Shown here one piece after another: positions 40,069-41,169 of a stretch of DNA of 64,000 nucleotides. How positions within the stretch are numbered: the stretch's first letter is position 1; every line of letters starts with the position of its first letter. Origin of the DNA: Escherichia coli (GTDB taxonomy: Bacteria; Pseudomonadota; Gammaproteobacteria; Enterobacterales; Enterobacteriaceae); assembly GCF_036507355.1 (NCBI RefSeq), contig NZ_AP027877.1, one strand, 5' to 3'. The notes below the pieces were generated by a model. It did no database searches and had not been told where the DNA came from. It was given only the letters and a program-made list of their open reading frames with translations. A program made the translations under genes and the position numbers.

Positions 40069-41169
40069 ATGAAATTAAAAATAGTTGCGGTGGTTGTAAC
40101 TGGTTTGTTAGCTGCGAACGTAGCACACGCTGCCGAAGTCTATAACAAGGATGGTAATAAACTCGACCTTTATGGCAAGGTTACCGCTCTACGTTATTTT
40201 ACTGATGATAAGCGTGACGATGGTGATAAAACTTATGCCCGTCTCGGCTTTAAAGGAGAAACGCAAATCAATGATCAAATGATTGGTTTTGGTCACTGGG
40301 AATATGATTTTAAAGGCTATAACGATGAAGCCAACGGCTCGCGCGGCAACAAGACCCGTCTGGCCTATGCTGGTTTAAAAATTAGTGAGTTTGGCTCTCT
40401 GGACTATGGTCGTAACTACGGTGTCGGCTATGACATTGGTTCATGGACCGATATGTTGCCAGAATTTGGTGGCGATACCTGGAGTCAGAAAGATGTCTTC
40501 ATGACATACCGTACCACCGGTGTAGCAACCTATCGCAACTACGATTTCTTTGGCTTAATTGAAGGGCTGAACTTTGCCGCGCAATATCAAGGCAAAAATG
40601 AACGTACTGACAACAGTCATCTTTATGGTGCAGACTACACGCGTGCCAACGGTGACGGTTTCGGTATCTCCTCAACTTATGTTTATGATGGCTTTGGTAT
40701 CGGTGCGGTATATACCAAATCCGATCGGACAAATGCGCAGGAAAGAGCCGCTGCTAATCCTCTTAATGCCTCCGGTAAGAATGCAGAACTGTGGGCCACA
40801 GGTATAAAGTATGATGCCAACAACATCTACTTTGCAGCTAATTACGCTGAAACATTAAACATGACCACCTATGGCGATGGTTATATCTCGAACAAAGCAC
40901 AAAGTTTTGAAGTGGTGGCGCAATATCAATTCGACTTCGGCTTGCGCCCATCACTCGCTTACCTGAAATCGAAAGGCAGAGATCTGGGCCGCTACGGCGA
41001 CCAGGACATGATTGAGTATATCGACGTTGGTGCGACGTATTTCTTCAACAAAAATATGTCGACCTATGTTGATTATAAAATCAACCTGATTGATGAAAGC
41101 GACTTTACCCGTGCCGTAGATATTCGCACCGATAACATCGTCGCAACGGGCATTACCTATCAGTTCTAA
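40069..41169 (+). CDS. general porin, OmpC/OmpF/NmpC(OmpD) family, intact
   Basis: 366-aa ORF; signal peptide [21 protein letters not shown] then [16 protein letters not shown] porin N-terminus; C-terminal ...TGITYQF; occupies the position where I recall K-12 carrying only the yddL porin fragment. Confidence 0.85.

Follow-up and report, generated by a model that had tools for sequence, protein, structure and literature searches.

The general porin OmpD of Salmonella is encoded next to yddG. The Salmonella ompD locus and the locus of a syntenic porin in Citrobacter koseri have the same gene order: fdnIHG (minus strand), yddG (plus strand), the porin gene (plus strand), a GFA-domain gene, smvA (minus strand), a TetR-family regulator gene that is probably smvR, narU and narZ. 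The Enterobacter cloacae locus includes fdnIHG (minus strand), yddG (plus strand), the porin gene (plus strand) and the GFA gene. A porin gene also follows yddG in Escherichia albertii, where it is split by IS1 in the one strain seen. A deletion described in Enterobacter hormaechei takes out ‘yddG and ompD’ together (PMC11874173).

The corresponding interval of enterohaemorrhagic E. coli has been described as O-island 62 (z2239-z2242), located between yddG and narU (PMC3079680). That study finds yddL similar to the 5' end of z2239 and reports the island from O157 and O55:H7, from phylogroup D strains and from some Shigella. The same study regards the island as a recent low-GC acquisition that was disrupted in K-12 by insertion of yddK. 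It does not treat Z2239 as a porin or as an orthologue of ompD.

We analysed a window of 64,000 nucleotides of E. coli DNA that encodes a porin of 366 residues at 40069-41169 on the plus strand. This porin is the same gene as Z2239 (98.5% DNA identity and two amino-acid differences relative to the O157 alleles) and is thus an accessory gene that has already been annotated and described, not a new one. The gene order in the window is fdnG (minus strand) followed by yddG, the porin gene, two leucine-rich repeat (LRR) genes, narU and narZ (all plus strand). The porin sits at the ompD position, flanked on either side by the same genes. The difference is confined to the stretch from the porin to narU: the E. 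coli porin is followed by LRR effector homologues, unlike Salmonella OmpD and the C. koseri porin, which are followed by GFA-smvA-smvR. The initial annotation had described the arrangement as that of Salmonella yddG-ompD. This is correct, as Salmonella, C. koseri and E. cloacae share the order and the region upstream of the gene aligns with that of Salmonella ompD. The porin gene and its surroundings have the following features:

38929..39810, plus strand: yddG, aromatic amino acid DMT exporter (NCBIfam NF008676 YddG equivalog, 472.5 bits against a cut-off of 194), ending 258 nt upstream of the porin on the same strand
39915..40068, plus strand: promoter and 5'UTR region homologous by alignment to that of Salmonella and C. 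koseri ompD
40055-40059, plus strand: Shine-Dalgarno sequence AAGGA of the porin, 9 nt before the ATG
40069..40131, plus strand: signal peptide of 21 residues with a cleavage site predicted from sequence between AHA and AE
40132..41169, plus strand: mature porin of 345 residues and stop codon (full-length Porin_1 match, PDB matches, AF2 model and Foldseek)
40459..40476, plus strand: PEFGGD motif of the constriction loop L3, residues 131-136 (alignment with OmpF, OmpC and PhoE)
41181..41214, plus strand: intrinsic terminator-like hairpin and T-run (terminator scan; 9-bp stem with 6 G-C pairs, T-rich tail)

The gene is very probably the E. coli positional orthologue of ompD, ancestral at the yddG locus, repeatedly lost, and encoding a standard porin channel. 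It resembles Salmonella OmpD, and the syntenic ‘OmpD’ proteins of Citrobacter and Enterobacter, in position, orientation, upstream region, Shine-Dalgarno sequence, signal peptide type and constriction residues.

The porin gene is intact. Its open reading frame runs from ATG to TAA with no internal stop codon, and Porin_1 (Pfam accession PF00267) covers residues 27-366 over the complete profile (positions 1-337 of 337, 448.8 bits). Solved OmpC, OmpK36 and OmpF chains align over the whole mature protein without large gaps (~60% identity, E about 1e-127). The N-terminus fits a Sec signal peptide followed by the pattern AE(V/I)YNKDGNK, and the signal peptide aligns with the OmpD-type MKLKLVAVAVTSLLAAGVVNA and does not match NmpC/Lc-type signal peptides. 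The protein ends in GITYQF, and the terminal phenylalanine that serves as an outer-membrane assembly signal is therefore present. The constriction residues K16, R42, R82, R132, D113 and E117 (OmpF numbering) are all conserved in an alignment with OmpF, OmpC and PhoE. The uninterrupted reading frame, full-length family match, signal peptide and YQF end bear out the initial annotation, which had read the gene as an intact porin of 366 residues, and the protein is an ordinary member of a very well-known family. A terminator-like hairpin begins 12 nt past the stop codon; together with its T-run, it suggests that the porin gene is monocistronic.

An AF2 model built from an alignment of 21 sequences has 16 strands (pLDDT 73.5, pTM 0.73) and matches OmpK36, OmpC and OmpF in Foldseek with TM scores of 0.85-0.92. 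Fold and pore architecture are the same as in OmpC and OmpK36 (2J1N, 6RD3), OmpC being another paralogue, encoded at the apbE-ompC-rcsD locus. Loop L3 of the model (residues 131-150) has pLDDT below 50, and because of this low confidence the orientation of K141 and Y147 is not judged from it. By analogy with the family, the precursor would be exported via Sec and cut after AHA, and BAM would insert the porin through its C-terminal YQF signature. The porin would then assemble as a trimeric 16-strand barrel in which loop L3 (PEFGGD) and a basic ladder K/R/R/R opposite D/E form the constriction. Small hydrophilic solutes and many antibiotics may diffuse passively through such a constriction. The effects on permeability and on phage or colicin sensitivity that the initial annotation proposed would thus be reasonable to expect of a member of this family.

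The porin is closer to OmpD-type porins (72-78% identity) than to OmpC, OmpF, OmpN and PhoE (59-63%). It shares 77.6% identity with the syntenic porin of C. koseri, 75.1% with that of E. cloacae, 73.5-73.9% with Salmonella OmpD and 68.7% with prophage NmpC/Lc. Among the K-12 porins, the values are 62.6% for OmpN, 61.7% for OmpC, 60.3% for OmpF and 59.2% for PhoE. In a neighbour-joining analysis with 300 bootstraps, an OmpD/NmpC-type group that includes the porin splits from K-12 OmpC, OmpF, OmpN and PhoE in 100% of replicates. The ‘OmpC-family’ label of the initial annotation therefore holds at the level of the family, and these identities and the tree place the porin more precisely in the OmpD/NmpC-type group and not in OmpC proper. 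Nodes inside the OmpD/NmpC-type group have support of 3-53%, with no specific sister link between the porin and Salmonella OmpD. Because the tree leaves the order within this group unsettled, orthology to ompD rests on position and upstream homology; the porin sequence is consistent with it and not decisive.

The E. coli porin is the most diverged of the syntenic OmpD set. The other syntenic orthologues are mutually 81-91% identical, yet they are 72-78% identical to the E. coli porin, and the flanking YddG shows 86-90% identity in all three comparisons. Five sites that are invariant in 21 other porins carry conservative changes in the E. coli porin, and each of four control lineages has none. 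K141 (in loop L3) and Y147 are unique to the E. coli porin among the 24 porins compared. Y147 aligns with PhoE K125 and OmpF G131, beside a constriction arginine. In PhoE, K125 determines selectivity (anion preference).

We surveyed the state of the locus in 5,426 complete E. coli genomes. At least 80% of the length of the porin gene is present in 1,111 genomes (about 20%), 1,008 of which hold the whole 5.3-kb yddG-to-narU segment. About 3,150 genomes (about 58%) retain only nt 1-281/284, corresponding to the K-12-type yddL. In about 1,150 genomes (about 21%), yddG lies directly beside narU and 39900..44051 is missing, as judged from BLAST breakpoints and from the annotation of one such genome (L012); the matches representing this deletion of the whole insert (rows H118-H129) cover 22% of the query. 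A further state is found in JSWP006 (NZ_CP147083.1, 2671-3702 of locus L014), in which only the first ~933 nt of the porin remain, directly adjoining an LRR fragment, reflecting an independent deletion other than that of K-12. Since outgroups have the porin gene, the stump and deletion states are losses. E. coli has thus lost the gene independently at least three times, in addition to the IS1 insertion in E. albertii, and this repeated loss has made the porin an accessory gene in E. coli today.

Where the gene persists, its surviving alleles are under strong purifying selection. All six E. coli alleles examined from diverse strains are intact and nearly invariant, with at most four amino-acid differences. 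Allele pairs that differ by more than a few substitutions have 11-20 synonymous and 2-4 non-synonymous changes, with dN/dS of 0.03-0.05 and dS of up to 0.09. These ratios indicate that the gene is kept by selection where it survives. At least 1,000 public contigs encode the exact protein of the window, to which that of O145 RM9872 (WP_000768396.1) is identical.

K-12 MG1655 has only yddL (b1472, 291 nt) at the porin position, as the initial annotation had stated. YddL consists of the first 93 residues of the porin, which are identical, followed by KNL and a stop codon. The initial annotation had named a frameshift or premature stop in the porin, or an intact gene in K-12, as findings that would count against it; neither was found. 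K-12 (RP437 and MG1655) aligns by BLAST to the window up to 40349, again at 41891-42216 and again from 42852. The segments absent from K-12 and the LRR genes that they affect are as follows:

40350..41890: deletion 1 in K-12, 1.5 kb, with its junction at a shared 6-bp microhomology CGGCAA
about 42217-42851: deletion 2 in K-12, which joins both LRR genes at a ATTGATTTATC stretch that is short and imperfectly repeated, giving yddK/yddJ
41339..42598, plus strand: LRR protein 1, 419 residues, 34% G+C (Pfam LRR_4/LRR_8), corresponding to z2240 and z2241 of O-island 62 (PMC3079680)
42661..43914, plus strand: LRR protein 2, EspR1-type T3SS effector homologue, 417 residues, 33% G+C, the exact protein being named by NCBI

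With deletion 1, K-12 lost the final three quarters of the porin together with the spacer and the 5' portion of the first LRR gene, and porin codon 93 was joined to the middle of that LRR gene, yielding yddL. The K-12 yddLKJ genes thus arose by two deletions and no insertion. YddL is encoded by the same gene, with the same upstream region, as the porin, but it is a deletion remnant that lacks roughly 14 of 16 strands and from which a barrel is impossible. In yddK/yddJ of K-12, the middle of LRR gene 1 is fused to most of LRR gene 2, forming a chimera (6276-6601 and 6582 onward of the RP437 locus).

The NCBI name for the exact LRR protein 2 is ‘T3SS effector leucine-rich repeat protein EspR1’, and the gene is called espR1 in O157. 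Exact matches to the LRR proteins are BED22470.1 and BED22471.1. By translation, LRR gene 1 is intact in the window, O145 RM9872, MS6198 and TUM13936 (L001 7271-8530, L019 2639-3898, L021 2640-3899), and RefSeq gives only a 288-nt pseudogene fragment for it in those genomes. In O157 SS52, a 1-nt gap ends LRR protein 1 at residue 167 (z2240/z2241). LRR gene 1 therefore looks like an annotation gap that conceals a possible T3SS-effector-like LRR protein.

The ~150 nt before the porin ATG align with the upstream regions of Salmonella and C. koseri ompD, with shared blocks GATCACA, TTAAAAA-AGT-TG-CATT, CGTTTA and AAGGATT. Homology thus reaches past the coding sequence. The yddG-porin spacer as a whole has 27% G+C, and a promoter scan upstream of the porin returned only weak matches to the sigma-70 consensus. 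AT-rich DNA of this kind is silenced by H-NS. Given the AT-rich upstream DNA and the weak promoter matches, expression of the porin in laboratory conditions could be poor, as for ompN.

Small RNA regulation of the E. coli gene need not match that of Salmonella ompD. We used RNAduplex to compare RybB, MicC and SdsR from MG1655 with positions -100 to +120 of the E. coli, Salmonella and C. koseri genes; the program gave unrealistic long-loop duplexes, most obviously for SdsR. Predicted energies on the E. coli porin are no better than those of shuffled sequences for RybB (-17.9 versus -16.2 ± 3.1) or MicC (-13.9 versus -13.9 ± 2.6). As no more than a lead, the RybB seed site in the early coding region appears retained in E. 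coli, with 8 bp, two of them G-U pairs. Such sites are regulatory traits of the OmpD group and do not strictly define it. Salmonella ompD reportedly contains a 12-bp MicC target, ascribed to work by Pfeiffer and colleagues in 2009. At this site (codons 23-26), E. coli has GAAGTCTATAAC where Salmonella has GAGGTATATAAC, which breaks two pairs, and because of these mismatches the E. coli gene may be regulated differently.

Searches of the literature, including those for yddL, OmpD and phylogroup, OI-62 and EspR1, returned no functional study of the porin and no expression data by which to compare it with OmpD as an abundant, CRP-dependent major porin. Searches for the locus tags Z2239, ECs2074 and ECs2076 returned nothing relevant besides PMC3079680. 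The gene yddL appears in PMC3946193 and PMC2817434 in table entries only, without usable promoter evidence. Proteomic and GWAS papers that name an E. coli ‘OmpD’ (PMC6996330, PMC10321414, PMC7696260) refer explicitly to nmpC/Lc or cannot be assigned to the yddG locus, and they are therefore not counted as evidence of expression of this porin.

Other origins have been implied for the gene by its name, its relatives and its neighbours. The RefSeq label ‘ompC: porin OmpC’, carried by every full-length match listed, would make it a second OmpC copy, and the NCBIfam ‘porin OmpC’ subfamily model agrees (496.1 bits, narrowly past the cut-off of 484). We consider this very improbable: identity to K-12 OmpC is at the level given above for that paralogue and reaches 74-78% for the syntenic OmpD-type porins, the porin falls outside OmpC/OmpN/PhoE/OmpF in every bootstrap, and genuine ompC sits between apbE and rcsD. 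It is hardly credible that the porin is of prophage NmpC/Lc type, left behind by a decayed lambdoid phage. NmpC/Lc porins of lambdoid prophages (DLP12, PA-2 type) belong to the same broad OmpD/NmpC-type group (67-70% identity), the best match in phage genomes reaches 69.6%, and such phage-borne porins are usually called ‘OmpD’ in E. coli annotation. Unlike the window porin, however, they are phage-borne, their signal peptide is a different one, and they make up a clade of their own (100% support), which the porin joins in none of the 300 bootstraps; phage genes are absent on either side of the porin, and its signal peptide is OmpD-type and not of the MKKLTVAISAVAASVLMAMSAQA-type of NmpC. Recent horizontal transfer of the porin together with the LRR genes as O-island 62, in place of descent from an ancestral ompD, follows the treatment of z2239-z2242 as one low-GC island (PMC3079680) and could draw on the long porin branch in the tree and on the absence or truncation of the porin in about 80% of E. 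coli genomes. This scenario is quite improbable, as the composition of the porin gene (44.7% G+C, GC3 45%) differs from that of the LRR genes (33-34% G+C, GC3 32%), and Salmonella, Citrobacter and Enterobacter share yddG, the porin and the upstream region without LRR genes. E. albertii likewise has a porin gene at the same site, and genomes without the porin show deletion junctions and no empty ancestral sites. On the strength of this difference in composition and of the synteny across genera, the porin looks ancestral and the LRR genes alone look imported, contrary to acquisition of a single island.

The porin could be intact but cryptic: silencing, by H-NS for instance, would leave it a minor part of the outer membrane in all but rare conditions, much like ompN in K-12. 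Such a reading shares ground with the main explanation and does not exclude it, and we regard it as a minority possibility of some weight. The low G+C content of the upstream spacer and the weak sigma-70 matches fit such silencing, the gene is gone from most E. coli lineages with no obvious harm, and the small number of amino-acid differences between alleles fits a surface protein that phages and antibodies rarely meet. Against this, the low dN/dS over the observed range of dS shows a selected coding sequence, which must therefore be expressed somewhere, and the Shine-Dalgarno sequence, the terminator and the 5'UTR blocks in common with Salmonella ompD, a highly expressed gene, are all preserved. 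A functionally shifted channel, as opposed to a redundant spare porin, is a further reading of the Escherichia orthologue that appears rather unlikely. It would draw on fast evolution along the Escherichia stem with the five changed invariant sites, on Y147 and K141 and on near-invariance afterwards, and it would take the repeated loss to reflect a trade-off. One example of such a trade-off would be a particular gain in uptake in certain hosts, paid for by the entry of phages, colicins or antibiotics.

The names in use for these genes are a trap. The gene that is truly orthologous by position to Salmonella ompD goes under the label ‘porin OmpC’, and in the E. coli annotations and literature examined, ‘OmpD’ denotes prophage NmpC/Lc porins. 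Pangenome or GWAS results that name either gene in E. coli are therefore open to misreading. O157:H7, O145, O55:H7, phylogroup D and related lineages (PMC3079680) have one general porin more than K-12. This extra porin could partly offset the loss of ompC or ompF in studies of antibiotic resistance. By analogy with Salmonella OmpD, phages or colicins could use it as a receptor, or it could be a surface antigen. The practical value of the finding is modest.

Several further observations concern the porin sequences and genomes used here. The porin’s own 90%-identity protein cluster has as its representative, and as several of its members, LepA (translation elongation factor 4) of gut Firmicutes. 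Because of this LepA-represented cluster, a clustering artefact and not biology, the porin’s own cluster is absent from the 5.8-billion-protein homology search. An ENA contig of 2.1 kb (P0001) encodes the N-terminal ~125 residues of another porin joined to a C-terminal part nearly identical to the window porin. Three further sequences (P0097, P0108 and P0114) have OmpF-, PhoE- or OmpC-like N-termini and OmpD/NmpC-type C-termini. These mosaic porins are either products of paralogue recombination or assembly chimeras.

A genome labelled E. coli 042 (NZ_CP042934.2, 4.69 Mb) has a locus with K-12-type yddL and a frameshifted LRR gene. As EAEC 042 is reported to have an O-island-62 equivalent with three intact ORFs (PMC3079680), this genome may not be classical 042.

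Elsewhere in the window, at 38057-38115 on the minus strand, the in-frame UGA of fdnG is accompanied by a SECIS element (Rfam RF01989, 84 bits). This ordinary feature accounts for the split of fdnG into open reading frames of 195 and 803 residues. Upstream of fdnG, the segment at 20000-38000 is covered to at least 80% in only 228 of the 5,426 genomes, with a best identity among complete genomes of 99.0%, so that the strain of the window is not one of them. This low coverage marks another accessory segment within that region, where a GntP permease and an acetyl-CoA acetyltransferase are encoded among other features.
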